From Candidatus Omnitrophota bacterium (GTDB taxonomy: Bacteria; Omnitrophota; Gorgyraeia; Zapsychrales; Zapsychraceae), in assembly GCA_028280285.1 (NCBI GenBank), contig JANQMA010000023.1, positions 1 to 60,280 on the forward strand: a DNA stretch of 60,280 nucleotides, read 5' to 3'. Positions 1,984 to 45,611 of the stretch are shown piece by piece; position 1 is the first letter of the stretch, and every line of letters starts with the position of its first letter. A program made the translations under genes and the position numbers. Under the pieces are notes generated by a model that was not told the DNA's origin, made no database searches, and was given only the letters and a program-made list of their open reading frames with translations.

Positions 1984-2055
1984 TGTTTAACTCACAGTCT
2001 TCTGGCGACAATTGTACTATACATAAAATTCAACAACAAGCTAATTTGTAGAATT

Positions 2056-2158
2056 AAGGAGTTAAGGGGACACATCACTTAATTATATTATTTTTTTCCC
2101 GCACCGAGTATGGAAAACGGTAGCTGTATAATTAAGTGATGTGTCCCCTTAACTCCTT
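2056..2158. repeat. REPIN-like inverted doublet, family AAGGGGACACAT[CT]ACTTAATT
   Basis: Perfect 32-bp inverted repeat: 2056-2087 (aaggagttaaggggacacatcacttaattata) and 2127-2158, with a 39-nt spacer. The right arm contains the last 8 codons and the stop of rodA. Confidence 0.8.
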
Positions 2159-3247
2159 CCGGCTAAGATTAAGTAGTATCCCAAGCATAATAGCAAAAAT
2201 CAAAAAAGAGGATCTGCCGTAACTAACCAGCGGCAACGTTAGCCCGACAATGGGGAAAAGCCCGATCACCATCCCCACATTAATAATAACCTGCAGAGAA
2301 AAAATAACAACTATTCCAATGATTAATAATATACCGAAGCGGTCTTTCACTCTTTTTACAAGCGACAAGGCAGTCGAAATAAGCAAGAAGTACATCACTA
2401 AAAGTAAGATCGAACCCATAAGCCCCCACTCTTCTCCTATAACAGAAAAAATAAAATCTGTGTGACGCTCCGGAAGAAAATTAAGTTGATTCTGTGTTCC
2501 TGACAGCCATCCTTTCCCAAAAACTTGGCCCGACCCGACGGCAATCTTTGATTGGATAATCGTGTAGCCGGCACCAAGCGGATCTATGTTAGGGTTTAAG
2601 AAAACCAGAAGCCTGTCTTTTTGATAGGATTTGAGAAAATGCCATGCAAACGGAAGAACGCCCACACAGATACCAGCAAACCAAAAAAGAACTTTGTGGC
2701 TTAATCCTCCCGCATAAGCCATAAATATGAATATGCCCAGCATAAGCAAAGAAGTCCCTAAATCCGGTTGTTTAAAAATAAGAAACATCGAGACAGCTGT
2801 CATACTAAGTGGAAAAAGAAAGTCACGAATCAAACCTGTAATCTTATTATGGATATTGAATGATAATACAGGCCGGCGGTTCGCATAATAACGGCTTAAG
2901 AAAACGATTAAAGCCAATTTTGTTAACTCGGAAGGCTGAAAGTTAACACCACCCAACTGAATCCAACGGCGGGCTCCCAACGCATCGCGGCCCATGATCA
3001 AAACCAATATTAAGAGGATTATATTCAACGCATATAAAATATACCCCAAATCATAGAAGCGTCTAAAATCAACTCTCTCAAAAATAAACATAACGGCAAA
3101 ACCGAGTACGACGATGAACAGTTGATCATAAAAAACCGTTTGCGGCACACGCACATTTTGGTAAGATGCACTGTAAAGCGCCACTAGACCTAAGGCGACA
3201 ATGATAAATGTGAAGAGCCAAATTTTAAAAGCGATATTCTTGTGCAT
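2132..3247 (-). CDS. rodA: SEDS-family peptidoglycan polymerase RodA
   Basis: 371-aa polytopic membrane protein with FtsW/RodA/SpoVE-type segments (QPSELTKLALIVFLSRYY, GLTLPLVSYGRSS). Last gene of the mreBCD-mrdA-rodA block. Confidence 0.85.
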   Translation of the reverse strand: MHKNIAFKIWLFTFIIVALGLVALYSASYQNVRVPQTVFYDQLFIVVLGFAVMFIFERVDFRRFYDLGYILYALNIILLILVLIMGRDALGARRWIQLGGVNFQPSELTKLALIVFLSRYYANRRPVLSFNIHNKITGLIRDFLFPLSMTAVSMFLIFKQPDLGTSLLMLGIFIFMAYAGGLSHKVLFWFAGICVGVLPFAWHFLKSYQKDRLLVFLNPNIDPLGAGYTIIQSKIAVGSGQVFGKGWLSGTQNQLNFLPERHTDFIFSVIGEEWGLMGSILLLVMYFLLISTALSLVKRVKDRFGILLIIGIVVIFSLQVIINVGMVIGLFPIVGLTLPLVSYGRSSFLIFAIMLGILLNLSRKELRGHIT

Positions 3248-3251
3248 TATC

Positions 3252-3315
3252 TAGTTGTTTGTTGTTTGTTGTTTGTTGTTGGCCTAACAACCAACAACCA
3301 GCAACCAACAACTAC
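3252..3315. repeat. Imperfect hairpin with heptamer-repeat arms, (GTTGTTT)x4 / (CAACCAA)x3
   Basis: tagttgtttgttgtttgttgtttgttgttgg-cctaa-caaccaacaaccagcaaccaacaactac fills the mrdA-rodA spacer. No U-tract follows on the transcribed strand. Confidence 0.7.
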
Positions 3316-5031
3316 TTATAACATTTTCTTATCCCTCAATTCCATAAACATCTGCCGGGCAATTAAAGTAGCATTATGACTTGAACCGCCATGTTCGAGA
3401 AAAACACAAAAGGCGAAATTTGCATTCTCCCCCTTCAAATACCCGACAAACCATGCATGGTGATCTTTGTTCGGTGCGCTTTGTGCCGTTCCGGTTTTGC
3501 CCGCGATATAAAGACCCGGCAAATCCAAAAAGTGTGCGGTGCCTGCATAATCATCAACCGCAGCCCTTAATCCTTTTTTAACAGAATCAAAGACACCATC
3601 CTTGATTCTTAATTGTTTACCCTTGTAATTCTTTTTAATATCTTCCCCCGCAACGGATTTAAGCAAATGAGGTTGAACCGTTTGCCCATCGTTGACAACC
3701 GTTGCCATCATATTCACTAACTGTAAAGGTGTTGTTAAAACATCACCTTGTCCAATAGAAAAATTAAGCGTGTGCCCCTTATACCATCTCTTCCTGTATT
3801 TAAGCATGCGTGCGCGCGGTGAAGGAACATGTCCTTCTTTTTCATGCGGCAAATCAATGTGCGTTTTTGCCCCCAATCCAAACTGACGGGCATACGTGTT
3901 GATCATATCCGGACCCAACATAAGACCGAGTTTGTAATAATAGACATTACACGAATGCGCCAGTGACTTGGTTAAATTATATTGACCCGGTGGTGCGGTG
4001 CAGCCAAAGCGAATGCCACCCAGATCATAAAAGCCTTTTGATTCAATCAGACTTTCTGCGGTGATTTTTTTCGCATCCAGCCCGGCGATGGCCATCGGTA
4101 CCTTAAAGACAGAACCTGGTGGATAGGCCGCACTAACCGCACGGTTAAGCATAGGCGCACGTTTGTTTTGAAATAATGCCGTTAACTGCCTACTCTTTGT
4201 TTTATCAAGAAAAATATTGGGATCATAGCCGGGTGTGCTTGCCATCACAAGCACTTCACCAGAGTCGGCATTCATCATCACAATCGATCCGCGCTTTTCC
4301 CCCAAAAGTTCTTCGGCAATTTTTTGAATATGTGTATCAATAGTCAGCTGTATGTCCTGCCCCTGCGACGGCTCCTTAATGCTCAGTATGCGCACCTGCT
4401 GACCACGACTGTTGACTTCAACCTGCTGACCCCCTTGCTCGCCTTTAAGATAAGAATCATAATATTCCTCAACACCGGAGTAACCTATGTTACTTTGCTG
4501 CGAATAACCGTATTCTTGATAGCGTTCGTACTTGGCCCGATTAATTTTGCCGACATAGCCTAAAATATGCGTTGCTAAGTTTTTTTGCGGATAATATCGT
4601 TTAAAATTTGTATGAACGGCAATACTTGGATACAAAAACCTATTCTCTTCGATGACTATAGCTTTGGCCTTATCAATATCTTCAACCAAAATAACCGGAG
4701 CAAATGGCGTAAATTTTTTATTGCGATAAGTCTGCTTAAGTTTGTTCGCATCGGTTTGAAAGACATCACTCAAAAAATGAAACAGTCTATCTTTATCCGC
4801 AATGTCTTGCGGTGTGACCATCACATCATAAGAAATACGATTCTCGGCAAGAACCACGCCATTACGATCTGTGATTTTACCACGGTAACCCTCGAGCGGA
4901 ACAATACGAATCCGGTTATTGGCACTGAGTTTATGATAATATGGCCCGCGGATCATCTGCATATAGGCGAGACCTAATATCAAGGTAATAAAACCGATGA
5001 TTATAAGTGTATATATAGTCTTGATACGCAT
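3316..5031 (-). CDS. mrdA: Penicillin-binding protein 2 (elongasome transpeptidase)
   Basis: 571 aa. N-terminal TM helix. Transpeptidase motifs SxxK (PPGSVFKV), SxN (HSCNVYY) and KTG (AGKTGTAQ). Sits between mreD and rodA. Confidence 0.9.
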   Translation of the reverse strand: MRIKTIYTLIIIGFITLILGLAYMQMIRGPYYHKLSANNRIRIVPLEGYRGKITDRNGVVLAENRISYDVMVTPQDIADKDRLFHFLSDVFQTDANKLKQTYRNKKFTPFAPVILVEDIDKAKAIVIEENRFLYPSIAVHTNFKRYYPQKNLATHILGYVGKINRAKYERYQEYGYSQQSNIGYSGVEEYYDSYLKGEQGGQQVEVNSRGQQVRILSIKEPSQGQDIQLTIDTHIQKIAEELLGEKRGSIVMMNADSGEVLVMASTPGYDPNIFLDKTKSRQLTALFQNKRAPMLNRAVSAAYPPGSVFKVPMAIAGLDAKKITAESLIESKGFYDLGGIRFGCTAPPGQYNLTKSLAHSCNVYYYKLGLMLGPDMINTYARQFGLGAKTHIDLPHEKEGHVPSPRARMLKYRKRWYKGHTLNFSIGQGDVLTTPLQLVNMMATVVNDGQTVQPHLLKSVAGEDIKKNYKGKQLRIKDGVFDSVKKGLRAAVDDYAGTAHFLDLPGLYIAGKTGTAQSAPNKDHHAWFVGYLKGENANFAFCVFLEHGGSSHNATLIARQMFMELRDKKML

Positions 5032-5492
5032 GATTTTAAAAATTCAATCGTCATATTCGCGACGACCAAAGTCGAAACAACTTCCGGAATAAAAATGTGC
5101 ACAAACAGATGCTTGAAACTGGTTGTAAAAAATATCATATGGAGAAAATATTGAACGATAACGTTGATGCAGATAACACAAAAAATAATCAAAAGTCTCT
5201 TCCACATGTTGCCACGCGGATGGATAAAGCGCAACAACACTGTCACGGCGTAGGCGCAGAGAATATAACTTAAAAAACTAATACCAAACATTGATGTGCT
5301 GAAACTGTCTTGCAGCATACCGCAAAAGATCGCCGCAAAGATACTGTAACGGATCCCAAAAGCGAAGTTGGCGAAAATAACAAGTAAGAGCAAAAAATTC
5401 GGCTTAAACCACTCACCGATTGTGTTGAATAAAATAAATTCGGTAAGGTAAAAGATGAATGAGAAAAGGATGATGAAGATAGTCTTAAACAT
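5001..5492 (-). CDS. mreD: Rod shape-determining protein MreD
   Basis: 163-aa very hydrophobic multi-helix protein lying between mreC and mrdA. The call rests on synteny and composition. Confidence 0.65.
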   Translation of the reverse strand: MFKTIFIILFSFIFYLTEFILFNTIGEWFKPNFLLLLVIFANFAFGIRYSIFAAIFCGMLQDSFSTSMFGISFLSYILCAYAVTVLLRFIHPRGNMWKRLLIIFCVICINVIVQYFLHMIFFTTSFKHLFVHIFIPEVVSTLVVANMTIEFLKSCVSRLYIHL

Positions 5493-5507
5493 AATCTTTC
5501 AATAAAT

Positions 5508-5648
5508 TAGTGATAGAGTGATATTCATAAATGGATTGATAACTGGTGATAAAGTGATAATTAGAAATTGTAGGGAACGCTCCCTTTACTAATCAATACC
5601 TCTTTTACCTCTCATACCACTCCTATCACTCTATCACTTTATCACTCT
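5508..5648. repeat. Nested imperfect palindrome with AGTGATA-type repeat arms and a central GC hairpin
   Basis: agtgatagagtgata (5509-5523) is the exact reverse complement of tatcactctatcact (5624-5638). A second register pairs ggtgataaagtgata with tatcactttatcac. Central stem agggaacgctccct at 5572-5585. The element overlaps the mreC stop codon. Confidence 0.7.
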
Positions 5649-6427
5649 TTCAAAATCACCAAAACCTCTTCCAACTGTGACAACGCGACAGCCGGTTCAA
5701 CAATGGCTTCAATCGTAAGTGTCCTTGGATTATGCACCACCTCAACAATGATACCCACCATTAAACTCTCCGGAAAAGAAGAACTCAACTTCGATGTAAT
5801 CACTTGATCACCGCCACGGATACGCGCATCTTGATCGATATAACTCATCCGGCAATTGCCATCGAGCGTTCCTGAGATCAAGCCACTTTCTCGTGTGCGT
5901 TTAACGAGCGCCGCCAAGCTAAATTGCGGATCGGTGATCAAAATAACTTTGGCAGTTGTCGGGCTTACCTCTGAGACTTTGCCGACGACCCCAAGCGCAT
6001 TAACAACAGGCTGCCCCACTTTAACCCCTTCGTTTGCGCCTTTATCAATAATCATCGAATTATTCCAGTAAGACGGTTCACGTCCGACAACATTGGCCGC
6101 CACCGATGAATAAACCAAACTGCGTTTGAGCTTAAGCAATTCATCCAGGCGCGTGTTTTCTTTAGTCAGTTCATCAATACCGATCAACCGCGCCTTTAAA
6201 TAACCGACTTCTTTGCGCAAGGATTTGTATGCCTCAAACGTACGATGATAATAAAGAATTTTTTTGACTTCACGGATAGGAAAAGAAATGATTTTAACCG
6301 GAACAGAAACGACTTTGATAAAACCGAATTTAACGGCGGTGAAAAACCTGGACTGACTGACAAACAAAAGGAAAGGAATAATAAGAAGAAGCGCGTAGAT
6401 TATATTTTTTTGATTGTCTCGTAGCAC
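5642..6427 (-). CDS. mreC: Rod shape-determining protein MreC
   Basis: 261 aa. N-terminal TM helix, coiled coil (LKARLIGIDELTKENTRLDELLKLK), C-terminal beta domains (GANEGVKVGQPVV, LGVVGKVSEV). Directly downstream of mreB. Confidence 0.85.
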   Translation of the reverse strand: MLRDNQKNIIYALLLIIPFLLFVSQSRFFTAVKFGFIKVVSVPVKIISFPIREVKKILYYHRTFEAYKSLRKEVGYLKARLIGIDELTKENTRLDELLKLKRSLVYSSVAANVVGREPSYWNNSMIIDKGANEGVKVGQPVVNALGVVGKVSEVSPTTAKVILITDPQFSLAALVKRTRESGLISGTLDGNCRMSYIDQDARIRGGDQVITSKLSSSFPESLMVGIIVEVVHNPRTLTIEAIVEPAVALSQLEEVLVILKE

Positions 6428-6430
6428 GCA

Positions 6431-7504
6431 TTAAAAATCTAATTTGGTTGGCACCACAATCCGACGACGAAGCCGCGCCGGCATATTAAGCATTTGGCCT
6501 GTTCCAAGAACAACCGCGGTCAGCGGATCATCGGCGATATGCACCGGAAGACCGGTTTCCTCGGCGATGCGTTTATCAAGACCGCGCAAAAGCGAACCCC
6601 CGCCGGCCATAACGATCCCGCGGTCAATCAAATCGGCGGACAACTCGGGCGGCGTTTGTTCAAGCGTTGATTTTGACGCGTCAACAATCGCCTGCACCGG
6701 ATCATGCAAGGCCTCGCGGATTTCAACCGATGTGATCGTAATCGTTTTCGGAAGCCCTGAGATAAGATCGCGTCCGCGCACATCCATGCTTAACTCTTCT
6801 TCTAAAGGATAGGCCGAACCGATACGGATTTTAATTTCTTCGGCGGTTCTATCACCGATCATTAAGTTGTATGTTTTGCGTAAATATTCAATAATCGCCG
6901 CATCCATTTCATCTCCCGCGATGCGAATGGACTTTGCATACACAAGCCCGCCTAAAGAAATCACCGCAAATTCCGTTGTACCGCCCCCGACATCCACAAT
7001 CATATTTCCTGCCGGCTCTTCGACCGCCAGGCCGACACCAACAGCGGCTGCCTTCGGCTCTTCAATCAGCTCCACATGACGCGCCCCGGCCCGTTCCGCC
7101 GAATCGCGCACCGCGCGTTTCTCAACCGCTGTAATACCGGATGGAATCGCGATCACCATCGCCGGACTTAATAATGTTTTACGCTTGTGAACCTTACGGA
7201 TAAAATACTTAAGCATGGCCTCGGTAATTTCAAAATCAGAAATAACCCCGTCTTTCATCGGGCGGATCGCCACAATATTACCCGGCGTGCGGCCGAGCAT
7301 CTTCTTGGCCTCTTCCCCAACGGCAACGACACGGTTTGAGTCTTTCTCAATCGAGACAACCGACGGCTCGCAGAGAACCACCCCTTCGCCCTTAACAAAC
7401 ACAAGGGTTGTGGCCGTCCCTAAATCGATTCCTATGTCATTGGAAAATAAACCTAAAATATAATTGAAGGCAGTGCGGACGAACTTAAGAATTTTTTGTA
7501 ACAT
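6431..7504 (-). CDS. mreB: Actin-like rod-shape protein MreB
   Basis: 357 aa. [53 protein letters not shown]. Confidence 0.95.
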
Positions 7505-7625
7505 AAGCGGTCTCTATTGGTTAGAAGATCTCCGGGAAATGATTTCACCAGAGCTGTATTTATATGGTAATAAATAATTTGCATAATAATATATTAAATG
7601 GGTGGGGGTGTCAAATGGTTTGTTT

Positions 7626-8027
7626 CTACTGACATACCTTCAAGGAAGACATAGCCTTTTTGATGCCATCAAAGTCTTTGTCATTATGAAGCAACTGCAA
7701 ATCATGTTCAATAGCCACTTGAGCGATAAGACAATCAACGGAATTGCGAATTGTAATACCTTTTTTACGGCATTGAATATAAATCTTAGCAGCTTGAGCA
7801 TAAGAATCTTTCTGATCCAAAGGAACAAAAAAGATCAGTGTATCGAGATACTTCTTTAAAAGGTTATAATCTTTAGGATTTGCCGCTCCCTGCAACAACT
7901 CCTGATAGATATGGCTTGTAATACCAAAGGGTATTTTCGATGCAATGATGTCATTTAATTGATCGGTTGCTGCATTATCAGCGCCTTTAAAAAAGTCAAT
8001 TAAAACAGATGTATCTACCAAAATCAT
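7626..8027 (-). CDS. vapC: PIN-domain toxin VapC
   Basis: 133 aa. Starts MILVDTSVLIDFF, with the conserved N-terminal Asp. Lies 3 nt downstream of the small antitoxin gene. Confidence 0.8.
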   Translation of the reverse strand: MILVDTSVLIDFFKGADNAATDQLNDIIASKIPFGITSHIYQELLQGAANPKDYNLLKKYLDTLIFFVPLDQKDSYAQAAKIYIQCRKKGITIRNSVDCLIAQVAIEHDLQLLHNDKDFDGIKKAMSSLKVCQ

Positions 8028-8030
8028 ATA

Positions 8031-8228
8031 CTATCCTTTTCTTAGAGCTTTATAATTGTAGTCTTTACGAAAAGTGATTTTCCCTTTTAGTTCGCGCAGA
8101 TCCAACCGACTATGGTTTTGAACATACTCTTTTAATGCAGTTGTGATTAAATCTTTTTTAGTCCGCAACTTGGATAATTTCAGAGCCTTCTTAACCAAGG
8201 CTTCATCTAAAACAATATTTGTGCGCAT
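8031..8228 (-). CDS. vapB: VapB-family antitoxin
   Basis: MRTNIVLDEALVKKALKLSKLRTKKDLITTALKEY... AGGAGG lies 9 nt upstream of ATG 8228. The ORF track's longer start at 8252 has no RBS. Confidence 0.7.
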   Translation of the reverse strand: MRTNIVLDEALVKKALKLSKLRTKKDLITTALKEYVQNHSRLDLRELKGKITFRKDYNYKALRKG

Positions 8229-8300
8229 AGAAATACACCTCCTTATACACATAGAATAGCATATATATTAAATATAGCAAACCAATAAAAAATTTTTGTA

Positions 8301-8459
8301 TTATTCAGGCTCGCGAGCGAAGGACAAATCGCCAATTGCGGCCTTGGCGGCCTCATACGGCTCGGGATCATCCGGCAGATCATCGGCCAGACCGAGAAAT
8401 AATGGAAGGTTGGTCATTGGTTGGACATTGATGATCACCGGCACAAACCCATGCTCCAT
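8301..8459 (-). pseudogene. Orphan copy of the giant-ORF C-terminal tail (52 codons, below the ORF-track cutoff)
   Basis: My translation: MEHGFVPVIINVQPMTNLPLFLGLADDLPDDPEPYEAAKAAIGDLSFAREPE*. It aligns to the 3' end of the 2,089-aa gene (nt ~9292-9430; GLVPVIINVQPMTNLPLFLGLADELPDDPEPYEAAKAEIGDLS) at roughly 85% nucleotide identity by eye. It has no upstream body. Confidence 0.75.
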
Positions 8460-8484
8460 AATTATTTGATTCAATCGTCTGAAG

Positions 8485-8745
8485 CTAACGATAAATAAGG
8501 GAATATTTCTCTAAGTTATTTAGAGAATCAAGATCCAAATCTATATCTAAATCCGGCCAGAAAAGATGAAAGCCATGATGAAGTTCGACATCCTGAATTT
8601 GAGCAAGTGTGGCATCTTTAAACCACGGAAAGTCTTTATCAGGTAAAAAATACTCCTTGGCCTTAACCATAACCCAAATCCCAAATGAGGAAATGTTTAA
8701 AACATCAACTTTGGAAATGTTTTTTCCACGATTTTTTGGCTTCAT
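8485..8745 (-). CDS. DUF2442-family small protein
   Basis: 86 aa. Pattern ...FPWFKDATLAQIQDVELHHGFHLFWPDLDIDLDLD... matches DUF2442 as I remember it. TAATG overlap with hicA. Confidence 0.6.
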   Translation of the reverse strand: MKPKNRGKNISKVDVLNISSFGIWVMVKAKEYFLPDKDFPWFKDATLAQIQDVELHHGFHLFWPDLDIDLDLDSLNNLEKYSLIYR

Positions 8746-8972
8746 TACAATAAACCTTTAAAGTCTTCAACCGAAATTTGTGCTTGTTTGAGTATATGCG
8801 AAAGGGTTGAACGTTTGATAGGACGATGCGCAGGCACTGTCAGTTTAAGCTTTTTTGACGGTGTTTCTTTCTGAAGACGAATGTGGCTGCCTTTTTGACG
8901 GACAACAACCCAACCATTGCGGCGCAAAGCTTTAATGACTTGTTCATAATTGGCGCTAGGAACCTTTGTCAT
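8745..8972 (-). CDS. hicA: HicA-family mRNA interferase toxin
   Basis: 75 aa. VIKALRRNGWVVVRQKGSHIRLQK...TVPAHRPIKRSTLSHILKQA. Confidence 0.8.
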   Translation of the reverse strand: MTKVPSANYEQVIKALRRNGWVVVRQKGSHIRLQKETPSKKLKLTVPAHRPIKRSTLSHILKQAQISVEDFKGLL

Positions 8973-9172
8973 ATTGACAACTCTACAGATTCCGCATTAG
9001 GAGTAAAACTGTTATCGTCCTCAACCGGCTCTAAATAAAGTTCAATCGCCTCTTTGATATTAGCTATCGCTTCATCCTTACTATTTCCTTCACTAAGACA
9101 ACCAGGAAGGGCCGGAACGATTGCCGTAAATCCACCTTCTTCACTTGGTTCTAAAATAATTTGTAATGTCAT
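8969..9172 (-). CDS. hicB: HicB-family antitoxin
   Basis: 67 aa. EEGGFTAIVPALPGCLSEGNSKDEAIANIKEAIELYLE. GGAGG 8 nt upstream. 4-nt overlap with hicA. Confidence 0.8.
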   Translation of the reverse strand: MTLQIILEPSEEGGFTAIVPALPGCLSEGNSKDEAIANIKEAIELYLEPVEDDNSFTPNAESVELSI

Positions 9173-9250
9173 TTATTGTCCTCCAGAAATATTATCTACT
9201 CAGTTGAAAGTATAGCATATTTCAGCATACCAACACAAACCCAAAAAACT

Positions 9251-12200
9251 CTAACACCTTCCCCCTAAAACCTTTAACATTTCTTGCCGCAGGTGGGACA
9301 AATCGCCAATCTCTGCTTTGGCCGCCTCATATGGCTCGGGATCATCCGGCAGTTCATCAGCAAGACCTAAAAATAGTGGAAGATTGGTCATCGGCTGGAC
9401 ATTAATGATCACCGGCACAAGCCCGTCAATGCTTAAGCGCAGCTGCTCAATCTGTTCTTGCGGAATATCAAACTTAAGGCAATCATCGAACGCGTCTTCC
9501 GAACAATCCGAGCCCTGCATGCCTTTGGTCTTCAACTCCCAGTTGGCGGGGTTAAGATCAATCCCACCTTTCTTAGCGTCTAGCGTAGAGCGGTTAGCGT
9601 TTAGATCACTATTCGCTATACGCTGTACGCTGCCTTCCGCCATCGCCGCCGGGTCGGGTTTAGCTTCGCTATCAAGGGCTGCAAAATCATCTTCTAAATC
9701 TGTCTTTATTTTTTGTAGATGATAAATCAATACATCCACAAAAATATTCCCTACCTTTTCTCGACTAATAACTTCCGATAATCTTCCTTTCACCGTATTC
9801 AAATATACATCAATCTCTTCTGCCTGATTGTACGTTGGGATATTTTGTTGTATCTCATATTTACTAAATGACAAAACATCCCTCACCACTTCAACATATG
9901 TATCACTTATATCTTCATGCTGTGCTATAAGCTCAGCCATACGTTCTGTTTGTTTTTGAGAAGTTAATACGAATAGATCGCTCATTAATTTTCCACGAAC
10001 AGACAGCCCCTTTTCAGTATTACTCCAAATTTCTTTAACCAAATCAAGGGTTTGAGACTTTAAATCAATAATATATAAATTAAGCGCCATCTGAGCTGTT
10101 TCTTTATCATAAAGCAATTCATCAGGATCTTCGAAATTATTAAACGCAGTTTCTTTACGAATAAAAAATTCAAAATTCATTGTATCTGTAAATTTCATTG
10201 TAATACCAAAAATCGTAAAAAGCGCATCAACATCAGGGTTATCCAAAAGATAATCAAGGATAATAGGATATAAAAATTCCAATTGATCAACCCCATTGGA
10301 ATCCTCCGTTAAATGATCACTCACAATACTCTCAATATCAGAAAGGACCTGTATTAAAAACCCCTTCATTGTAGATTTACTATATGCCTTGCTTAGTTGA
10401 TCATAGCTTGCAACTTTTTCTTCATATAACTTGCGTAAACCTTGGTGCAATCCTTTGATTGTCTTACCTGTCTTATATTTATATTCTGTGTGACTAAATG
10501 ATGCCGCATCGCCCTTGCCTCCCATCGCCGCCGGGTCGGTTGGTTCTTGATTGAGAGCAGCCGTATCGCTATCAGTGTCCTCAAACGCATCTCCCATTTC
10601 CTGCACTTCATCAATCAACCTACGGGTATCCTTTTCATACTTTTGCTGGCGTTTAATTCCTTCTATTTTTCCCTGATCAAATGGTTTTCGCACCTCATCT
10701 CTTATATCCTCAGGCAGCGCAACTAAAATATGTGCACCCACAGTTGCAAGCGCTGACAATAGTTCATCTTGTTTTTTCACACCGGGCTGGTTCACTTGCT
10801 CCTTGATTCCTTCTATTATCTGACTCAGCAACAATGGAGTATCCTCCAACCGCTGAAGAGCCGACGTCACAATAGCTCTTTGCCTTCCTTCTGAGCCTCT
10901 ATTTTTAAAAATGGAAGTAAAAAGCTCAAATGATTCTTGTTGGTCAACAACCTCATCGCCATGCACAATACTATCCAAAATACGTGTAAGAATCACAAGC
11001 TCTAGATATTTTTTATTTTTCTCAGTATCAGCATAGAGCATTTGAAGATTATCCGAAAACTCAACCACATCATATTCACTCATCGCCGCGGCATCAGCCT
11101 TATCGCCAAGCGTTTCAGCATCCGAATCATTCGACGGGTCTAAAACAGGCGTATCTGTCATTTTATGAAACGGTTTATGGACACGTAACATAAATTTTCT
11201 AAACAAATCAGATAAGGATTTCTCTAAGTCATATAACTCACTCTCATTGGCTGGTGATGCCACCATGCCCATTTCGACCAAACCCGTTATAACCTCGTCT
11301 AGAACTTTATCCGGTAATTGTGTTTCAAGGAATACACCAAGAAACTGTGCTCCTAAATCATTCTTTCCATAACCAGCATCAAGTTGCTCAGCAATGCCCT
11401 TAATGCCTTTAATCATCTTAATACCCCTAGCGTCCTTAATATCCCCAAAATAATCTCTATTAATAATATTACGTTTAAGAAATTGAGGAGAATAATCAGA
11501 GATATTAACATATCTTACTCCCTTGGATGCGTGTACAGTATCATACGGCATATGATACAACACACTTAACTTCCACATTTCTATCAAGTAGTCTCCCAAA
11601 ACATCAAATTTTTCTTTCATAATTTGTTTCAAGTAGTCTCCTAAAACCTTAAAATCTTCTTCTGTAGGAAGTTGCATTAGCTCTAACATTTTAGTAATGT
11701 TCTCTGAAGGAATCATGTGACCATTTGCCCCTCTTACAAATTCATATTTTTTTTTCTCATTCCATGGGTGTCCTGGAAATTCGCCCTTGAGCAATTTTTT
11801 CTTTTTCGCCTGAGCATCCACACCCAAAGCCAAAGCTCCTGCTGCCGATACGGCCGTTTTCACAAACTTCCTGCGATTCATCGCCGCCGGGTCGGTTGGT
11901 TCTTGCAGCGCTGCTGGTTCAGAAACGGCAGCATTTTCTCCATCAGCATAATTAGTTTGCCAATACTGCATAACCGTCTCAATGAACGGCATTAATCGTG
12001 GCTTAACGTTTTCAAATTTTGGCACATCCCCAAACAACTCGATTAATAAATCATTTGCCTCTTGCCTTATATCGTTATCATCCAAAGATTCAATAAAATC
12101 CATACGATGTTTATAGGCTGCAGGTGATGAAATAAACATCAATTTTTTCTCTTCGGGTGACAAATTTTTAATACGCCTATTAGCCGCCTCAGACCCTATT

Positions 12201-15200
12201 CGATTGCTCAACCATGCTCTTACAGCCTCCCGCGCCCCTTCCATGCTATAGCCCAAACGGCGGATCAAAAGTTCTTCCCGAATAATCCGCGCCGCTATGA
12301 CATACTCTGGCGGCCATTGAAAATCGACCAACTTTTCGGCTAACATTACTTCCGGAAAAGCACGATTAACGGCAATCTCGTGAATTAATGATTTAGGGTA
12401 TTGTGAAGCAGCAATTTCTCCTAAAGCGCCTGCCAGTTCCGCATGAGCTGTGAATCTAAACTCAGGGGCCTCTATATCAGTTGTCGCATTATATTGCTTA
12501 ATTAACCTTTCGACCGATCGTTTATAGTCGCCTCGTCGAATACGCTCTGTTGTATAAACATGTGTAGTTTCATGATAAGCTATCTCCAGTAAATAATTTT
12601 TAATAATTCGCTTATCAGAAATATTTTTAAAATCATTTTCAAATACCCGGTATACATGTTGTGCTATTTCTGCACCGATAGGATCTTTTTTAAGATCAGA
12701 TACAACAGGAGAATTATTTAATTTTCGTTTAAGATTTTCCAGTTTTTTACGAAGATAATAAAAATTAACAAACACATTGTGTCCAACCTGTCTACCTATG
12801 CCGGTAAAAATAGGATTAGGTGTATCCACCATATGAAATAGTGTCGGTTTATCCAACATAATTTCTTGTTTCACTTTGCTCTGTATATTATTTTCATAAT
12901 AGAGAGCAAGAAGATCAACGTAAACGCCATTCAAATCAAGCTTGGCTTTACGTACGAATTTTCCATCCCGACCAATGAGTGCCTGATTGTCATCCAAAAG
13001 TTTTTGTTCTAATTGTCCGATCTGATCTGGTGTTAATCCTTTGGTGATCGGTAATGCGGCCTGTGCATTCATTTTTTCTAAAAATTCATGAATAATGCTT
13101 TGTGCGGTATCCCCAGGCTGAACGATAACATGATAATAAAAACTCCATTGATCACGCACAAACCGAAATTTTGCCCCCTGCAGAAATGGAGAAACTGGCC
13201 CCAACACCATAAGCGCCCCAACTGTCCTGATAAACCTTCGTCTATTCATATCCATCGCCGCCGGGTCGGTTGGGGCGTCTTGTAGCGCTCCATCATCTTC
13301 ATTTAATACATTCGCCGTATCAGCTTTAGATAAACTTGCAAACTCAACATTGTCATAGTTCAGTTTGTTGTATATCAAATCGAAATTCACCTCACCACCC
13401 CTTATGGCACGTCGCAACAAAGATAAACTACCATCTTCTCTGGACACTTTCATAGATGCAACAGAAATTATATTCGTTAAATGCACAAGATCTTTATCAT
13501 TTGTGATTATAAATTGCGAAGAAACATCAACCATCCTTTCAACAAGTAATCGATTTCCAATAATCTTCTCTGCGTCTTTTTCTGTCGACCATTGCGATAC
13601 TGCTGAGAAAAACCTTCCCAATTCATATGGTTCTTGTTTTGACATAGCAATGTAACTACGCAAACCATGATAAAAAGACTCGTAGTCAGAAGAGATAGCC
13701 AATGAAAGATCCTCTTCAGGAAGAAGGGCATATAGACCATAAATGTCCTCATTAAAATATTGTAGTTTTTCTTCAGGCATTCCATCTCGATTGGAAGAGT
13801 TTTCAATCGAACTGATAAGTGAAAAATATCCTTTATTATGATTTACAACAGCTCTTCTTTCTTTATCACTTCCATCATGCAATCGATGAAAGTCAGATAT
13901 ATATCCAAATTGCTCCTGTATGGCCTGCGCATAACGATTAAAGCGCTCTACATCTCCATTTAGCTCACGCATTGTGTCAAGAAGATCACTAAATTGATTA
14001 GAAATCATATTCTCATCAAAAATTATACTTTCCGTATAAGGATCCCACTGATCGAATCCTGCTCGCCGATACTCTTCCTTTAACATTTCTGTAAATATTT
14101 TATTAGAATTTTGCATTGACCAATGACTTGGTAAACCATTTTCTATAATTGAAGTAATAATATTTGACTTGAGATCAAGCATAGCGCTCATCATAGGTTT
14201 AACTTCTGTTTCATCTAAAAACAGATTGTCTTCAAAAGGTTCTTTTTCGTTTGGATCACTATCATCTCCTTGTTCTTCTTCAGATATTTCTTTTTCAATA
14301 ATTGTTCGTATTTGATCGCTCTCGACCTCATCAGATGACTTGAATAAAATGACAGACATAACAAAAGCTGCTCCTGCGGCTGCAAATAGACCTATGTTTT
14401 TGAGCGTTGATAATGACGCATTATCTTTGTTTTCTGTGCGTAGTGCATTATCCATCACCGCTTGATCAAAACCAAATCCCCCAGAAAAATACTTGCGTGG
14501 GATGATTTGTTGCGCAACCGGATCGTATTCTTCTTTGATGTAGTCATAGACCCCGACTTTGAATGATTCGACATATTGATCGTAGATTTTTTGTGCCGCG
14601 CCTTCTTCACCGTGCGTGACGCCTTTGGTCTTGTTCTGATCCACGTACACTTGTGTAAGAACAGAGTTCTTGAGCTTACGTTTGTACCAGCTGGCAAGGA
14701 TGAGCGAGTTGTAGATCTGACGCAGCGGAGCAAAATGAGTTCCTTGATTCACCTCTTCTTCAAGCACCGGGAGGATAATGTCACGGATAATCTCAGCGTT
14801 TGGCGTATAGCGTTTAGCGTTTAGGGAGTTATCAGCTGATGGCTGAGAACTACTATCCGCTATCCGCTGTTCGCTACTCGCTAGAGCCAGGTAATCTTCT
14901 TCCAGCATAACTTTCAATCTACTCTCCACCACATACGCCACGCCATCACCTTCATAGACAGTCGCCTCTTCCGGGACGATCCACACCTTATTGAAAGTGT
15001 TGACCGGTATATTATCCAAGCCCGATTTTTGCTTAATCCGCTCCCAAAATTTTTGTCCCACACCTCCATCTTCCGGATACATCAGTGATGAGGTGAGCTG
15101 CTTGAGTAAATAGTCCTGGGCCAGCAATTCACGGCCCATCTCCGTCATCCCAAATTGCTCCGGAATAATTCGGTCCTCTTCATACGGGGATAAGTTCACC

Positions 15201-15520
15201 CATAGATCAGATTCGGGGACAGTCAGTGAGGCAAGGAAGTATTTGATCAGCTTGGTAGACTCTTCCTGAAGGACCTCACCTTCCATCCCCGAATCTCCGG
15301 GATCTATAATAAAATCGAATTGAAAGGGGTTTTCCGGGTTTATCTTTAAACCCTTAACTGTCACTGGGGCATAGGGTTGTGTCAAATTAAGCATATTGCC
15401 GATCGGGAGCAACACTATCGGCTGGGCAAAAGCAGAAACGGGCATCTGGATAGATGTCCATAGAAAGGCCACTATAGTAAAAATAGATATAGTTTTATTA
15501 AAAGGGGTATTTCGTCTCAT
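9251..15520 (-). CDS. Giant modular envelope protein (2,089 aa), paralog of the 3,539-aa ORF; function unknown
   Basis: Uninterrupted 6.3-kb ORF in AT-rich DNA. Sec-type signal MRRNTPFNKTISIFTIVAFLWTSIQMPVSAFA. N-terminal domain (aa ~40-355) is shared with the other giant ORF (NPFQFDFIID, DLWVNLSPYE.DRIIP, FAPLRQIY.SLILA.WYK, IIPRKYFSGGF). Six D-x-A-[AV]-M junctions end at M356, M756, M1214, M1480, M1666 and M1960. Two internal Tat-like signals. HETTH at aa 983-987. C-terminal GGIDLN...GLVPVIINVQPMTNLPLFLGLA tail. Confidence 0.9.
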   Translation of the reverse strand: MRRNTPFNKTISIFTIVAFLWTSIQMPVSAFAQPIVLLPIGNMLNLTQPYAPVTVKGLKINPENPFQFDFIIDPGDSGMEGEVLQEESTKLIKYFLASLTVPESDLWVNLSPYEEDRIIPEQFGMTEMGRELLAQDYLLKQLTSSLMYPEDGGVGQKFWERIKQKSGLDNIPVNTFNKVWIVPEEATVYEGDGVAYVVESRLKVMLEEDYLALASSEQRIADSSSQPSADNSLNAKRYTPNAEIIRDIILPVLEEEVNQGTHFAPLRQIYNSLILASWYKRKLKNSVLTQVYVDQNKTKGVTHGEEGAAQKIYDQYVESFKVGVYDYIKEEYDPVAQQIIPRKYFSGGFGFDQAVMDNALRTENKDNASLSTLKNIGLFAAAGAAFVMSVILFKSSDEVESDQIRTIIEKEISEEEQGDDSDPNEKEPFEDNLFLDETEVKPMMSAMLDLKSNIITSIIENGLPSHWSMQNSNKIFTEMLKEEYRRAGFDQWDPYTESIIFDENMISNQFSDLLDTMRELNGDVERFNRYAQAIQEQFGYISDFHRLHDGSDKERRAVVNHNKGYFSLISSIENSSNRDGMPEEKLQYFNEDIYGLYALLPEEDLSLAISSDYESFYHGLRSYIAMSKQEPYELGRFFSAVSQWSTEKDAEKIIGNRLLVERMVDVSSQFIITNDKDLVHLTNIISVASMKVSREDGSLSLLRRAIRGGEVNFDLIYNKLNYDNVEFASLSKADTANVLNEDDGALQDAPTDPAAMDMNRRRFIRTVGALMVLGPVSPFLQGAKFRFVRDQWSFYYHVIVQPGDTAQSIIHEFLEKMNAQAALPITKGLTPDQIGQLEQKLLDDNQALIGRDGKFVRKAKLDLNGVYVDLLALYYENNIQSKVKQEIMLDKPTLFHMVDTPNPIFTGIGRQVGHNVFVNFYYLRKKLENLKRKLNNSPVVSDLKKDPIGAEIAQHVYRVFENDFKNISDKRIIKNYLLEIAYHETTHVYTTERIRRGDYKRSVERLIKQYNATTDIEAPEFRFTAHAELAGALGEIAASQYPKSLIHEIAVNRAFPEVMLAEKLVDFQWPPEYVIAARIIREELLIRRLGYSMEGAREAVRAWLSNRIGSEAANRRIKNLSPEEKKLMFISSPAAYKHRMDFIESLDDNDIRQEANDLLIELFGDVPKFENVKPRLMPFIETVMQYWQTNYADGENAAVSEPAALQEPTDPAAMNRRKFVKTAVSAAGALALGVDAQAKKKKLLKGEFPGHPWNEKKKYEFVRGANGHMIPSENITKMLELMQLPTEEDFKVLGDYLKQIMKEKFDVLGDYLIEMWKLSVLYHMPYDTVHASKGVRYVNISDYSPQFLKRNIINRDYFGDIKDARGIKMIKGIKGIAEQLDAGYGKNDLGAQFLGVFLETQLPDKVLDEVITGLVEMGMVASPANESELYDLEKSLSDLFRKFMLRVHKPFHKMTDTPVLDPSNDSDAETLGDKADAAAMSEYDVVEFSDNLQMLYADTEKNKKYLELVILTRILDSIVHGDEVVDQQESFELFTSIFKNRGSEGRQRAIVTSALQRLEDTPLLLSQIIEGIKEQVNQPGVKKQDELLSALATVGAHILVALPEDIRDEVRKPFDQGKIEGIKRQQKYEKDTRRLIDEVQEMGDAFEDTDSDTAALNQEPTDPAAMGGKGDAASFSHTEYKYKTGKTIKGLHQGLRKLYEEKVASYDQLSKAYSKSTMKGFLIQVLSDIESIVSDHLTEDSNGVDQLEFLYPIILDYLLDNPDVDALFTIFGITMKFTDTMNFEFFIRKETAFNNFEDPDELLYDKETAQMALNLYIIDLKSQTLDLVKEIWSNTEKGLSVRGKLMSDLFVLTSQKQTERMAELIAQHEDISDTYVEVVRDVLSFSKYEIQQNIPTYNQAEEIDVYLNTVKGRLSEVISREKVGNIFVDVLIYHLQKIKTDLEDDFAALDSEAKPDPAAMAEGSVQRIANSDLNANRSTLDAKKGGIDLNPANWELKTKGMQGSDCSEDAFDDCLKFDIPQEQIEQLRLSIDGLVPVIINVQPMTNLPLFLGLADELPDDPEPYEAAKAEIGDLSHLRQEMLKVLGGRC
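9576..9630. repeat. In-frame palindromic heptamer element, (GCGNNTA)x4 ... (TNNNCGC)x3
   Basis: gcgtcta gcgtaga gcggtta gcgttta g atcac tattcgc tatacgc tgtacgc. Encodes ~SVQRIANSDLNANRSTLDA, a segment missing from the equivalent place in the other giant ORF. Confidence 0.7.
9641..9660. repeat. GC-rich junction repeat, degenerate copy
   Basis: catcgccgccgggtcgggtt (KPDPAAM, M1960). A further variant, catcgccgcggcatcagcc, lies at 11081-11099 (DAAAM, M1480). Confidence 0.8.
10523..10549. repeat. GC-rich junction repeat, same core
   Basis: catcgccgccgggtcggttggttcttg. Precedes MGGKGD (M1666). Confidence 0.9.
11879..11908. repeat. GC-rich junction repeat, same core
   Basis: catcgccgccgggtcggttggttcttgcag. 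The first 27 nt are identical to the copy at 10523. Precedes MNRRKF (M1214). Confidence 0.9.
13253..13285. repeat. GC-rich junction repeat, core CATCGCCGCCGGGTCGGTTGG (encodes PTDPAAM on the minus strand)
   Basis: catcgccgccgggtcggttggggcgtcttgtag. Precedes MDMNRRRF (M756). Confidence 0.9.
14803..14881. repeat. In-frame palindromic heptamer element, (GCGTWTA)x3 ... (TNNNCGC)x4
   Basis: gcgtata gcgttta gcgttta ... tcagctga ... tatccgc tatccgc tgttcgc tactcgc. Encodes SSEQRIADSSS...SLNAKR inside the shared N-terminal domain. Confidence 0.7.
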
Positions 15521-15644
15521 GCATCACAATAAAAGTTGTTGGTTGTTAGATCAATTGAGTCTACCGAAGAAAGTATGCCATATATATTATTTATATAAAG
15601 ATAGGAAGGGAAAAATCAGGAAAGCGTTTTCGCAAATTTTACAT

Positions 15645-15974
15645 TTATTCACTCAGACGAAATGGCTTGATTTTTTTGACTTCACGGCTTGGATTATTGA
15701 GCGCATGCCACACATCATAATTTAATTGGCCTTGCGTCCACAAATCAATACTTGTTTCGAAACATTTGGATAGGCGATGCGCTATTTCTAGAGAAATTGG
15801 CTTTTTTTGATGAACAATATCACTTAAGTGTTTACGAGAAATCTTTAACCGATCGGCCATGTCTTTTTGAGTAATCTCAAAAGGGGCCATAAACTCTTCC
15901 AATAATATTTCCCCGGGATGCACCGGTGGACGATTAGTTGGCAAAGAGTAGTTAATTTTGTTTTTCATTATCAT
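15645..15974 (-). CDS. higA: HigA-family antitoxin (XRE helix-turn-helix)
   Basis: 109 aa. PPVHPGEILLEEFMAPFEITQKDMADRLKISRKHLSDIVHQKKPIS. GAGGAG 7 nt upstream of the ATG. Confidence 0.85.
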   Translation of the reverse strand: MIMKNKINYSLPTNRPPVHPGEILLEEFMAPFEITQKDMADRLKISRKHLSDIVHQKKPISLEIAHRLSKCFETSIDLWTQGQLNYDVWHALNNPSREVKKIKPFRLSE

Positions 15975-15985
15975 GTTAGTTCTCC

Positions 15986-16279
15986 TCAGTGATAATCGAT
16001 AATTTCTACATTTTTAGGCCCATCAGGTGACCACGCAAAACATATACGATATTGCTCATTAATGCGAATACTATACTGTCCTTTACGATCACCCTTTAAT
16101 TTCTCCAAATGATTGTTTGGAGGAATTTTTAAATCATTTAAACTCAACGCATTTTCTAAAAAATAAAACTTCCGATACACCAACTTCCATAAATGTGTTG
16201 GTAATCGTTTAAGTGCCTTTTTGCTGCGAATACCGTTGTAAATATCTTCTGTTGTCGAATCACGAAATGATTGAATCAT
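15986..16279 (-). CDS. higB: HigB/RelE-family toxin (plasmid maintenance system killer type)
   Basis: 97 aa. MIQSFRDSTTEDIYNG..., LKGDRKGQYSIRINEQYRICFAWSPDGPKNVEIIDYH. Toxin-first gene order is typical of higBA. Confidence 0.85.
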   Translation of the reverse strand: MIQSFRDSTTEDIYNGIRSKKALKRLPTHLWKLVYRKFYFLENALSLNDLKIPPNNHLEKLKGDRKGQYSIRINEQYRICFAWSPDGPKNVEIIDYH

Positions 16280-16284
16280 GACTT

Positions 16285-16314
16285 AAATGTAACCTAAAAG
16301 GTTACATTTGTCAA
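16285..16314 (-). promoter_or_regulatory. Putative higBA promoter with overlapping palindromic operator
   Basis: Minus strand reads TTGACA-17 nt-TACATT-taagtc-ATG. The perfect 10-bp inverted repeat AAATGTAACC/GGTTACATTT (16285-16309) covers the spacer and the -10 box. Confidence 0.5.
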
Positions 16315-16351
16315 ATATTTCTTTTTTCGCCAAATGGAAATAAAAAATCGA

Positions 16352-17635
16352 TTAACCGCGTACTTTTGCACCTAATCTCTTAAAATCTTTCGGAAAGCCG
16401 GGGTAGGATTTGGCGCAGCACTGCATGTTTTTGATGCGGACCCCGATTTTAAGGCCCAGGACGCTGAAGGCCATGGCCAGGCGGTGGTCGTTGTGAGGAT
16501 CGAGAAGCACATTGGATTTGTAGGTTTCTTGCGGATGAATAATGAGCGCATCACGGCGCTCGGTGATTTTGGCACCGACCTTAAGGAGTTCTTTACGTAA
16601 ATCGCCAATACGGTCCGACTCCTTGGCCCGCGCATGGGCAATGTCCACCAGTTCAGTTTTGCCACGAGCAAAAAGAGCGAGCACCGCCATAATCGGCACA
16701 AGGTCCGGACAGTCTTTGAGCGAAAACCGTCCGCCCTTAAGACGAAACGGCCCTTTAAGCTTAATCGCCTTGGATGTCTTTGTAAATTTAACCCCCATCT
16801 TTTTAATCAACGGAATAATGTGTCCATCGGCCTGCACAAACTCATCGCGAAACGCGCCTTTGAGTGTAACGTTAGAATCAGTTAATGCTGCTGCCGCCAA
16901 ATGAAATGCCGCCAGACCATAGTCAGACGGAACAGCGAAATTGCACAGCCCTTTAAACTTTTGTCCACCGCGTACCACATAATCACGTGCGCCTTTTTTG
17001 CGGACAGTGACACCCGCCTCTTTTAACACTTGTGTTGTCATAGTGATATAATCGCTCGACACAGTTGTGCTTCCCGTTAAATGGACATGCGTATTTTCAT
17101 CAAGTACCGGTGCCGCGATGAGAAGGGCCGAAATGAATTGAGAACTAAGCGAACCGTCGATATTAATTTTACCCGCTCGCAACTTACCGCCGGAAATTTT
17201 AATCGGCACACTTTCTTGACGCCCCTTGCCGCGAATCTTAACACCCATGGCACGCATGGCTTTTGTTAAAAATTGATTCGGACGGCCGACCAGGGTGCCG
17301 GAACCTTTGATTATCGAGTTGTCGGAATAAAGCGCACACAAAGGAAGGACAAAGCGCAGCGTCGTGCCGGACTCCTTGACGTGGATATTTTTTAAATTAA
17401 CTTTCCTTGCAAAGGCAGCGATCTTCCAGGCATCACCGACGGCCTTTGTGATTTTTGATCCGAACAACTTGGCCACATCACGGGCAACAAGCGCATCATC
17501 ACAATCCGAAGGATTTATAATTTTTGATTTTCCGCCGCAAGCCGCAATCATCCAAGCACGAATCGAATACGATTTCGACGCAGGAAGCTGGATTGAACCT
17601 TTAAGTTTTTGGGTTGGTTTAACTTGGAATAACAT
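16352..17635 (-). CDS. aroA: 3-phosphoshikimate 1-carboxyvinyltransferase (EPSP synthase)
   Basis: 427 aa. LPASKSYSIRAWMIAA, ESGTTLRF, GTLVGRPN, DHRLAMAFSVLGL. Confidence 0.9.
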   Translation of the reverse strand: MLFQVKPTQKLKGSIQLPASKSYSIRAWMIAACGGKSKIINPSDCDDALVARDVAKLFGSKITKAVGDAWKIAAFARKVNLKNIHVKESGTTLRFVLPLCALYSDNSIIKGSGTLVGRPNQFLTKAMRAMGVKIRGKGRQESVPIKISGGKLRAGKINIDGSLSSQFISALLIAAPVLDENTHVHLTGSTTVSSDYITMTTQVLKEAGVTVRKKGARDYVVRGGQKFKGLCNFAVPSDYGLAAFHLAAAALTDSNVTLKGAFRDEFVQADGHIIPLIKKMGVKFTKTSKAIKLKGPFRLKGGRFSLKDCPDLVPIMAVLALFARGKTELVDIAHARAKESDRIGDLRKELLKVGAKITERRDALIIHPQETYKSNVLLDPHNDHRLAMAFSVLGLKIGVRIKNMQCCAKSYPGFPKDFKRLGAKVRG

Positions 17636-33548: not shown

Positions 33549-33614
33549 GTACGGGTCGCTCGCGAGCGACCCTAATTTTTCGACATATTAGGGCGGCTCA
33601 CGAGCCGCCCCTAC
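33549..33614. repeat. REPIN doublet of GTAG-type REPs (GTAGGGGC-hairpin-GCCCTAAT)
   Basis: gtacGGGTCGCTCGCGAGCGACCCtaat (33549-33576) and, inverted, attaGGGCGGCTCACGAGCCGCCCctac (33587-33614). The TAG stop of the addA-like gene (33611-33613) lies inside the GTAG. Confidence 0.75.
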
Positions 33615-45095: not shown

Positions 45096-45121
45096 AATCA
45101 GTTCCTTAAATACCTCTAGTA

Positions 45122-45605: not shown

Positions 45606-45611
45606 TGTTCC

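Follow-up and report, generated by a model that had tools for sequence, protein, structure and literature searches.

Between aroA (16352-17635) and mreB (6431-7504) in a 60,280-nt stretch of contig JANQMA010000023.1 from a Candidatus Omnitrophota bacterium (hereafter the window, whose coordinates are used throughout), we examined a short open reading frame (ORF) that repeats part of the C-terminal end, or tail, of a large gene in its vicinity. Every gene of this region is carried by the minus strand. In the order of transcription, aroA is followed by a higB-like gene, a helix-turn-helix (HTH) gene, a large ORF encoding 2,089 amino acids (aa; 9251..15520), hicB, hicA, a DUF2442 gene, the short ORF (hereafter the orphan; 8301..8474), vapB, vapC and mreB, with mreC, mreD, a PBP2 gene and rodA further downstream. 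A repeat finder detected a single strong repeat family, namely two copies of 129 nt that are 87% identical, ungapped and offset by 974 nt. The resident copy (R1; 9296..9424) represents the second half of the tail module of the large protein (G-LVPVIINVQPMTNLPLFLGLADELPDDPEPYEAAKAEIGDLS), and the other copy (R2; 8322..8450) lies in the orphan. The two copies align by blastn with 86.8% identity over 129 nt (E = 2e-40) and by tblastn with 87% identity over 47 residues (E = 2e-23). An earlier note on this DNA, which had described a duplicated tail on both sides of a hicB, hicA and DUF2442 cassette, thus described correctly that there is a duplication, how large it is and what the interval contains, and the similarity it had judged by eye survives formal alignment.

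Both borders of the repeat are sharp, with identity dropping to background at once, and beyond the residues GDLS the copies are only about 33% identical. Their distal ends are unrelated: the large gene ends with HLRQEMLKVLGGRC and a stop codon (9251..9295), whereas the orphan ends with six unique codons, FAREPE, and a stop codon. FAREPE resembles a shortened form of the usual ending of the protein family described below (AREPEE[IV]SLLN) and is closer to it than the resident distal end is. Across the 43 codons in common, 17 differences were counted, 13 of them synonymous and 4 non-synonymous, which gives a synonymous rate (dS) of 0.60, a non-synonymous rate (dN) of 0.042 and a dN/dS of 0.07 (binomial p = 1e-5 under neutrality). 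Such a strong synonymous excess indicates that each copy evolved inside a functional gene before the copies met, i.e., that they diverged as parts of two working genes under protein-level selection. Considering that prolonged neutral drift of the orphan would have raised the number of amino-acid changes, we roughly estimate that drift accounts for no more than about 15% of the total. Divergence under selection rules out that the copies arose by a fresh local duplication, target-site duplication included.

No close relative of this pair was found elsewhere. For the full tail of the large gene (a 118-residue query), the searches gave no relative above 51% identity outside the window: a word-indexed protein search gave three matches (each at most 51% identical), and a scan of species-representative genomes gave relatives of at most 49% over the full tail, with short matches of up to 61% restricted to the core of the tail. 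The best core-only matches outside the window, from 23 loci in a scan of Joint Genome Institute (JGI) metagenomes, reach 82% over 22 residues or 72% over 29. As R1 is closer to R2 than to anything found outside the window, the orphan derives from the large gene's own lineage, its source being either a recently formed paralogue or an allele that belonged to a related strain or species. The exact 2,089-aa protein is not on record.

The orphan can be read from three alternative start codons, namely TTG (8301-8474, 57 aa), ATG (8301-8459, 52 aa) and GTG (8301-8444, 47 aa), the last of which was chosen by the gene caller on a second assembly of the locus and has a GGAG 9 nt upstream. In agreement with the earlier note, no gene body lies upstream of it: a 34-nt spacer without similarity to the large gene (8451..8484) separates R2 from the stop codon of the DUF2442 gene, and at 57 aa at most the orphan is not the end of a large protein. 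It matches positions 33-83 of a hidden Markov model profile of the tail, while the large gene matches positions 2-85, and the GGIDLNP first half of the module is thus missing from the orphan. The core G-[FL]-x-P-[VI]-I-I-N ... P ... L-G, whose columns are invariant in family alignments, is kept (GFVPVIINVQPMTNLPLFLGL). The orphan has no Pfam or NCBIfam match, and no called gene on record corresponds exactly to its 52-aa ATG-start product. In itself it is a small gene relic of low novelty, most likely dead and non-functional, an inactivity that we infer.

The interval between the copies holds exactly three genes, which are hicB (8969-9172; Pfam HicB-like PF15919, E = 4e-12), hicA (8745-8972; Pfam HicA PF07927, E = 1e-18) and the DUF2442 gene (8485..8745; Pfam PF10387, E = 6e-13). 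The hicB and hicA genes overlap by 4 nt, and the start codon of the DUF2442 gene overlaps the hicA stop codon; with HicA and HicB domains in one compact operon, the pair is a hicAB type II toxin-antitoxin (TA) module. Between this hicBA-DUF2442 operon and the orphan, scanning for sequence patterns did not reveal any terminator-like site. The 67-aa HicB covers positions 3-62 of the 123-position HicB-like model, and the layout of a 67-aa HicB with a 75-aa HicA is shared by relatives, a hicB of this length being present at four other loci (L104-L107). The nearest HicA is that of locus L104 (93% identical), where no tail lies upstream and no DUF2442 gene downstream. Comparison with L104 (80.6% nucleotide identity) delimits a conserved hicBA unit (8744..9222), comprising a promoter region of about 50 nt, hicB and hicA, that stops short of the repeat borders by 74 nt and 294 nt. 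Other HicA relatives (75-85% identity) occur in several phyla and unrelated contexts, e.g., in a CRISPR-Cas locus or beside tyrS and secE, and the interval is therefore a composite of 74 nt (the resident distal end plus spacer), a promiscuous hicBA unit, the DUF2442 gene and the 34-nt spacer. One other family gene (L091) is also directly followed by hicBA. Common descent of this linkage was considered and rejected, because HicA proteins from unrelated phyla are closer to that of the window than that of L091 is (75-85% vs 71%), and the N-terminal domain of the large protein is about as similar to that of L091 (54%) as to that of the window's own paralogue (53%). The adjacency in L091 is therefore compatible with chance. 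More generally, the first genes after 109 other tails are housekeeping genes, and TA families are absent among the 25 most frequent Pfam families listed for them (each with at least two members). The idea that TA cassettes generally target tails is not supported.

What the earlier note had overlooked is that the tail is a phylum-wide C-terminal module. Another large ORF of the window (48769-59388, 3,539 aa) has a related tail end and the same N-terminal domain. A profile built from six tails and searched against 1.84 billion representative proteins matched 5,059 representative clusters at E <= 1e-3 and 1,525 at E <= 1e-10, and 90% of the top 150 matches lie within 32 residues of the C-terminus. 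The species-representative genome scan yielded 79 loci with 103 tails, each located 0-79 residues before the ORF stop. Complete tail-bearing ORFs encode at least 472 aa and up to more than 3,400 aa, shorter ones running off the fetched DNA. The titles of the 79 loci name Omnitrophota or carry generic labels, e.g., 'uncultured Planctomycetales', 'uncultured bacterium' and 'Candidatus Elulimicrobium sp.'. Tail-bearing genes often stand in tandem arrays of two to four (L005, L020, L023, L055). The consensus reads VGGIDLNPxLLDLQIKRDGNGVPLP...IxGFxPVIINVxPxxNLPLLLGL, after which come an acidic stretch and, in many cases, ...AREPEE[IV]SLLN. No match to the module was found in Pfam, NCBIfam or PDB (including a PDB search with the tail profile). 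Term searches of two Omnitrophota giant-gene papers (West-Roberts et al. 2023 and a 2026 preprint) found no mention of it, and literature searches with motif strings returned unrelated papers only. On these grounds the tail appears to be an undescribed and unnamed module that is widespread across Omnitrophota. An AlphaFold2 model from a 43-sequence tail alignment gave no confident fold, with a predicted local distance difference test (pLDDT) score of 64 and a predicted template modelling (pTM) score of 0.19. Together with the C-terminal position and the co-occurrence of an N-terminal signal peptide, this suggests that the tail may be a linear C-terminal sorting or secretion signal.

The large protein itself consists of a Sec-type signal peptide (read from the sequence), a conserved N-terminal domain (N-domain), five unique low-GC modules and the tail, and no Pfam or NCBIfam family was found in it at E <= 0.01. 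The N-domain spans about 360 residues, is 53% identical between the two large genes of the window and gave 98 tblastn matches in the fetched loci; a PDB sequence search with it found nothing. The middles of the large proteins are unique. Within the large ORF (9251-15520), the unique modules have a GC content of 30-36%, and their GC-richer junctions, near 9641, 10523, 11081, 11879 and 13253, encode ..PTDPAAM, with DAAAM at one of them. Two of the junctions (10523-10549 and 11879-11905) have an identical sequence of 27 nt, and two junction Met residues precede twin-arginine-type signal sequences (MDMNRRRFIRT.. and MNRRKFVKTAVSAAGALALGVDAQA). The same 'D.AM' motif also precedes the tail throughout the family, and the large ORF gives the impression of an in-frame fusion of separate genes at this motif. 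Five proteins of 80-104 aa (P0002, P0020, P0042, P0063 and P0094) begin with a Met a few residues before GG-I-[DN]-[LF]-N, and they may be free-standing full tails cut at a 'D.AM' junction or broken gene calls.

Evidence of recombination within the family comes from other genomes, in which adjacent paralogues are mosaics with similar tails beside unrelated sequence. In L055 (1-6646), two neighbouring genes are 99.9% identical over 936 nt, their tails are 89% identical over 213 nt and the rest differs, which points to a recent gene conversion or segmental exchange between neighbours. In L072 the tails alone match (80%), and the tails of neighbours are 86% identical in L023 and 75% in L066. Such mosaics suggest that recombination within the family is frequent. 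The tail core is also the best-conserved DNA of the family, with 92% identity over 40 nt to L091, compared with 54% protein identity for the N-domain. Further orphan tails occur in two metagenome contigs. In L085, a ParE-type TA pair stands between a tail and a partial second one, the two being about 94% identical, and in L097 two diverged tails are separated by 20 nt. All three orphans, including that of the window, begin 0-9 codons upstream of GFVPVIIN and are without the GGIDLNP half, and those of L085 and L097 are degraded or altered at conserved residues.

We had considered L085 as a clean second example of the arrangement and downgraded it. This contig (Ga0137405_1403644) is an inverted duplication with arms that are 91-95% identical and with almost no long ORFs. 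Each arm contains a tail, a ParE-type pair and a partial tail, the features lying at 413-590, 1151-1301, 4547-4696 and 5265-5447, and the contig is either error-rich sequence or a decayed locus.

The surroundings of the orphan were also compared with related loci. The nearest relatives of the MreB protein are 92-95% identical at the protein level and only about 77% at the DNA level. In five loci from four lineages (L109, L110, L111, L112 and L116, of which L109 and L110 share the same MreB protein), aroA lies directly beside mreB in the order ileS-dksA-lspA-rluD-orf-aroA-mreB-mreC, with 86-337 nt between aroA and mreB (the 337-nt spacer being that of L116, 9664-10000). In L113, other cargo occupies the site (1593-3257), namely an oxidoreductase gene and two small ORFs. 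None of the six loci has a tail. Since the interval is empty in five of them, the whole stretch of about 8.7 kb (7615..16351) from higB to vapC, including the large gene, represents lineage-specific cargo, and it is this inserted islet that the earlier note had also missed. The interval between aroA and mreB seems prone to cargo gain.

The islet comprises three recognised TA modules, the DUF2442 gene, one large gene and the orphan. Besides hicBA, these modules are a higBA-type module upstream of the large gene (15645..16279), with a HigB-like protein (15986-16279) and an HTH_3 protein (15645-15974) recognised by Pfam, and a vapBC module (7626..8252), with vapB (8031-8252; Pfam VapB, 1e-15) and vapC (7626-8027; Pfam PIN, 2e-15; NCBIfam VapC, 2e-43). 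With every ORF accounted for, the islet contains no transposase, integrase or other recombinase gene, and scans found no flanking inverted repeats and no tRNA; Rfam and tRNA scans of the window found nothing. Immediately beyond vapC, the mreB promoter has been preserved.

Taken together, these observations are best accommodated if recombination in the tail core imported a new 3' end together with the cassette and displaced the old end, in a manner reminiscent of rhs genes, a reading that we hold to be evenly balanced between right and wrong. The orphan would then be the stranded 3' end of an older member, allele or paralogue, in a family of large secreted Omnitrophota proteins, for which we would put the chances at about even. 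DNA from a related gene, with a diverged tail core, a different distal end and hicBA plus DUF2442 downstream, would have arrived and recombined with the resident gene inside the conserved core (GFVPVIINV...), either by a single crossover with a circular intermediate or by one homologous crossover and one illegitimate join. The large gene would thereby have gained its present 3' end, while the old core with FAREPE would have been pushed 974 nt downstream without a body, resulting in the order body, R1, new distal end, cargo, R2 and old distal end. A single crossover with circular DNA carrying a diverged core and cargo would produce exactly the observed arrangement. The event would have taken place inside the TA-rich islet of 8.7 kb, with the TA genes as passengers. 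Owing to TA addiction, cells that lost the interval when R1 recombined with R2 would be penalised for the missing hicBA module, and TA modules may thus disfavour such loss. The low dN/dS and the family-like ending FAREPE fit best with one of the two histories offered by the earlier note, in which an older 3' end was displaced downstream. It is favoured here because the 5' border of the orphan falls at the most recombination-prone stretch in three of three cases and because the distal ends look exchangeable.

Several observations weigh against it. The nearest relatives are distant (best MreB 95% at the protein and about 77% at the DNA level), the state before the event is unobserved, and we infer its direction and its mechanism from the present arrangement. 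The borders show no demonstrable microhomology or crossover signature (at the 5' border of the orphan just AGCAT..GGG, too short for interpretation). Orphans were absent from the 79 species-representative loci with their 103 tails, which makes the process rare, and L085 as a palindromic, frameshift-rich contig gives weak support. The orphan ORF is intact and has a possible GGAG-N9-GTG start, so that translation is possible. Moreover, adjacent paralogues can be equally similar, as are the tails of L055, and deletion of a neighbouring gene could leave the same relic. In that case, two tandem genes with hicBA and DUF2442 between them would have lost the DNA that began 34 nt after DUF2442 and reached as far as the tail core of the second gene, of which only the last 47 or so codons were left. 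We give this a clearly smaller but still appreciable chance: tandem arrays of tail-bearing genes are common, tails of neighbours are similar at the nucleotide level (89%, 86% and 80% in L055, L023 and L072), and the low dN/dS is accounted for equally well with a single event. However, a random end-point in a gene of about 2,000 codons would rarely fall at the core, yet all three orphans start there and none keeps the GGIDLNP half, which lies only about 40 codons upstream. Tandem neighbours are also close together, TA families are absent among the listed top Pfam families after tails, and no trace of the body of a second gene was found. It is improbable, in our view, that the orphan is instead a functional mini-gene yielding a free half-tail of 47-57 residues that might contact machinery recognising tails. 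The ORF has no indel over 129 nt, a gene caller predicted it as a 47-aa gene, low dN/dS would suit ongoing selection, and it lies 34 nt downstream of the hicBA-DUF2442 operon. Yet the absence of an indel is, by a rough estimate, about 40% likely even under neutrality, and there are no orphans near the 103 tails of the 79 species-representative loci, which argues against a conserved gene type. The product lacks the GGIDLNP half and any Pfam or NCBIfam match, its 52-aa form has not been recorded as a called gene, and the other orphans (L085 and L097) are degraded or altered.

The other history offered by the earlier note, in which a mobile TA cassette entered the tail by transposition or site-specific integration and thereby duplicated its target, is very improbable. 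Direct repeats do flank a TA cassette, L085 provides a second case of tail, TA pair and tail, and the L091 gene is directly followed by hicBA. However, a target duplication is short and identical at birth, whereas the repeat here measures 129 nt with a dS of 0.6 and a dN/dS of 0.07; with neither flanking inverted repeats nor a recombinase gene in the islet, target-site duplication was rejected as the origin of the repeat. Neither transposase, integrase nor terminal inverted repeats are present, the hicBA unit ends well short of both repeat borders, the 71% match in L091 is not specific, and no TA enrichment was seen in the listed families of first genes after 109 tails. TA modules are not known to create diverged 129-nt repeats of a neighbouring gene. 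An assembly artefact, i.e., a mis-joined read or a collapsed strain variant, is extremely improbable. A Logan contig of run SRR20820735 (7,309 nt) equals positions 2129-9437 of the window at 100% identity and contains both repeat copies in one piece, and two assemblies thus share 7.3 kb. Each copy is surrounded by unique sequence, and the longest exact run common to both is 20 nt, too short to mislead an assembler with k = 31. As the second assembly agrees and the copies have no long exact runs in common, repeat-driven misassembly is very unlikely. The one hint of a graph branch is that the Logan contig (L001) ends at 9437, a position 13 nt upstream of where the repeat begins. At its opposite end lies a 30-nt inverted repeat, as an assembly graph with k = 31 would give, and a graph branch, possibly a strain variant, may lie at 9437, the junction of the gene body and the tail core.

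The proposed displacement resembles what is known from rhs genes, for which homologous recombination with circular intermediates has been proposed to displace C-terminal tips (Jackson et al. 2009, PMC2935791). As with rhs genes and orphan CdiA-CT and Rhs-CT modules (PMC2935791; Poole et al. 2011, PMC3150448), the gene involved encodes a large secreted or surface protein made up of constant and variable parts, a short constant stretch recurs downstream with no body attached, the copies are separated by imported DNA, and the proposed cause is homologous recombination in a conserved stretch, possibly via a circular intermediate. In contrast to these systems, the stretch repeated here is the very end of the protein and looks more like a sorting signal than a toxin-domain border, the displaced tip has only six codons, the cargo is an ordinary type II TA operon, and there is no toxin domain, immunity gene or Rhs/YD, FHA or VENN feature. 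The earlier note's comparison with polymorphic toxin loci thus holds for the mechanism and fails for the toxin domain, the immunity gene and the delivery domains. Of four features that define a polymorphic-toxin orphan, the orphan has homology to a conserved region (129 nt, 87%). It does not have a variable toxin domain of its own (its six codons FAREPE match nothing in Pfam or NCBIfam), it is followed not by an immunity gene but by a standard vapB-vapC pair, and Rhs/YD, FHA, PAAR and pre-toxin motifs were not found in the 2,089-aa protein. With three of the four features lacking, classification as a polymorphic-toxin orphan was rejected.

The locus also has parallels to other known systems. 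Like type II TA islets (hicAB, vapBC and higBA), it has clear HicA, HicB-like, VapB, PIN/VapC and HigB-like/HTH matches in compact overlapping operons at a variable intergenic site, with close relatives in many phyla; it differs in that the 67-aa HicB matches only the N-terminal half of the Pfam model. Like PEP-CTERM and LPXTG signals, the C-terminal domain of the type IX secretion system (T9SS) and signals of the type I secretion system (T1SS), the tail lies at the extreme C-terminus of large proteins with signal peptides, is limited to one phylum and occurs many times per genome. Unlike them, it has no transmembrane helix with a basic cluster, no Pfam, NCBIfam or PDB match and a pLDDT of 64. 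The giant genes of Omnitrophota encode very long, secreted and largely unannotated proteins and have been linked to type II secretion and type IV pilus loci (West-Roberts et al. 2023, bioRxiv 10.1101/2023.11.21.568195). The genes studied here are from the same phylum and are smaller (2,089 and 3,539 aa), and type II secretion/type IV pilus genes adjoin that for the 3,539-aa protein. The region following this gene (43584-48536) contains GspE-like, GspF-like and PilN-like genes, with type II secretion/type IV pilus genes at 46818-48536 and 45612-46811.

A widespread C-terminal module, undescribed in the databases and papers searched, thus marks thousands of large proteins in Omnitrophota. The family genes appear to recombine at their conserved ends, which would help to explain their shuffled hypervariable middles, and the aroA-mreB interval provides a concrete variable site where such genes and TA modules accumulate. 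Omnitrophota are a possibly predatory or host-dependent phylum. Tentatively, the tail core could be a portable recombination handle through which homologous recombination swaps in new 3' ends together with cargo such as TA operons and old ends are shed as orphans, a view that we consider rather doubtful at present. It would amount to Rhs-like displacement in an uncultivated phylum, acting on a putative sorting signal instead of a toxin tip, and we would not yet expect this to prove correct. If orphans cluster at the tail core across genomes, a testable model for the diversification of surface-protein repertoires would be available.

Finally, the earlier note had likened the end of the orphan to the stem of a repetitive extragenic palindromic (REP) element, a likeness that comes down to a 12-nt match. 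The sequence gctcgcgagcga / GCTCGCGAGCGA at 8309-8320 agrees over 12 nt with the perfect 20-nt palindrome that occupies 33553-33572. The orphan contains a 10-nt palindrome (GCTCGCGAGC; 8309-8318) that is in frame and encodes the Ala-Arg-Glu of the distal motif. Allowing one mismatch, the palindrome pattern occurs four times against one expected, and 3 of 100 shuffles reach this count. The 20-mer has no other copy within three mismatches, the orphan palindrome region gives no RNA structure signal (z = -1.2), and RNA folding of both repeat regions is no better than that of shuffled sequence. REP elements are imperfect palindromes of about 20-40 nt that are extragenic and present in many copies, and the sequences here do not have these properties; we regard the resemblance as coincidental. 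The palindrome at 33553-33572 belongs to a separate feature (33553-33606), in which another GC-rich hairpin comes after the perfect 20-nt palindrome GGGTCGCTCGCGAGCGACCC; it is located between two minus-strand genes and present as a single copy in the window.

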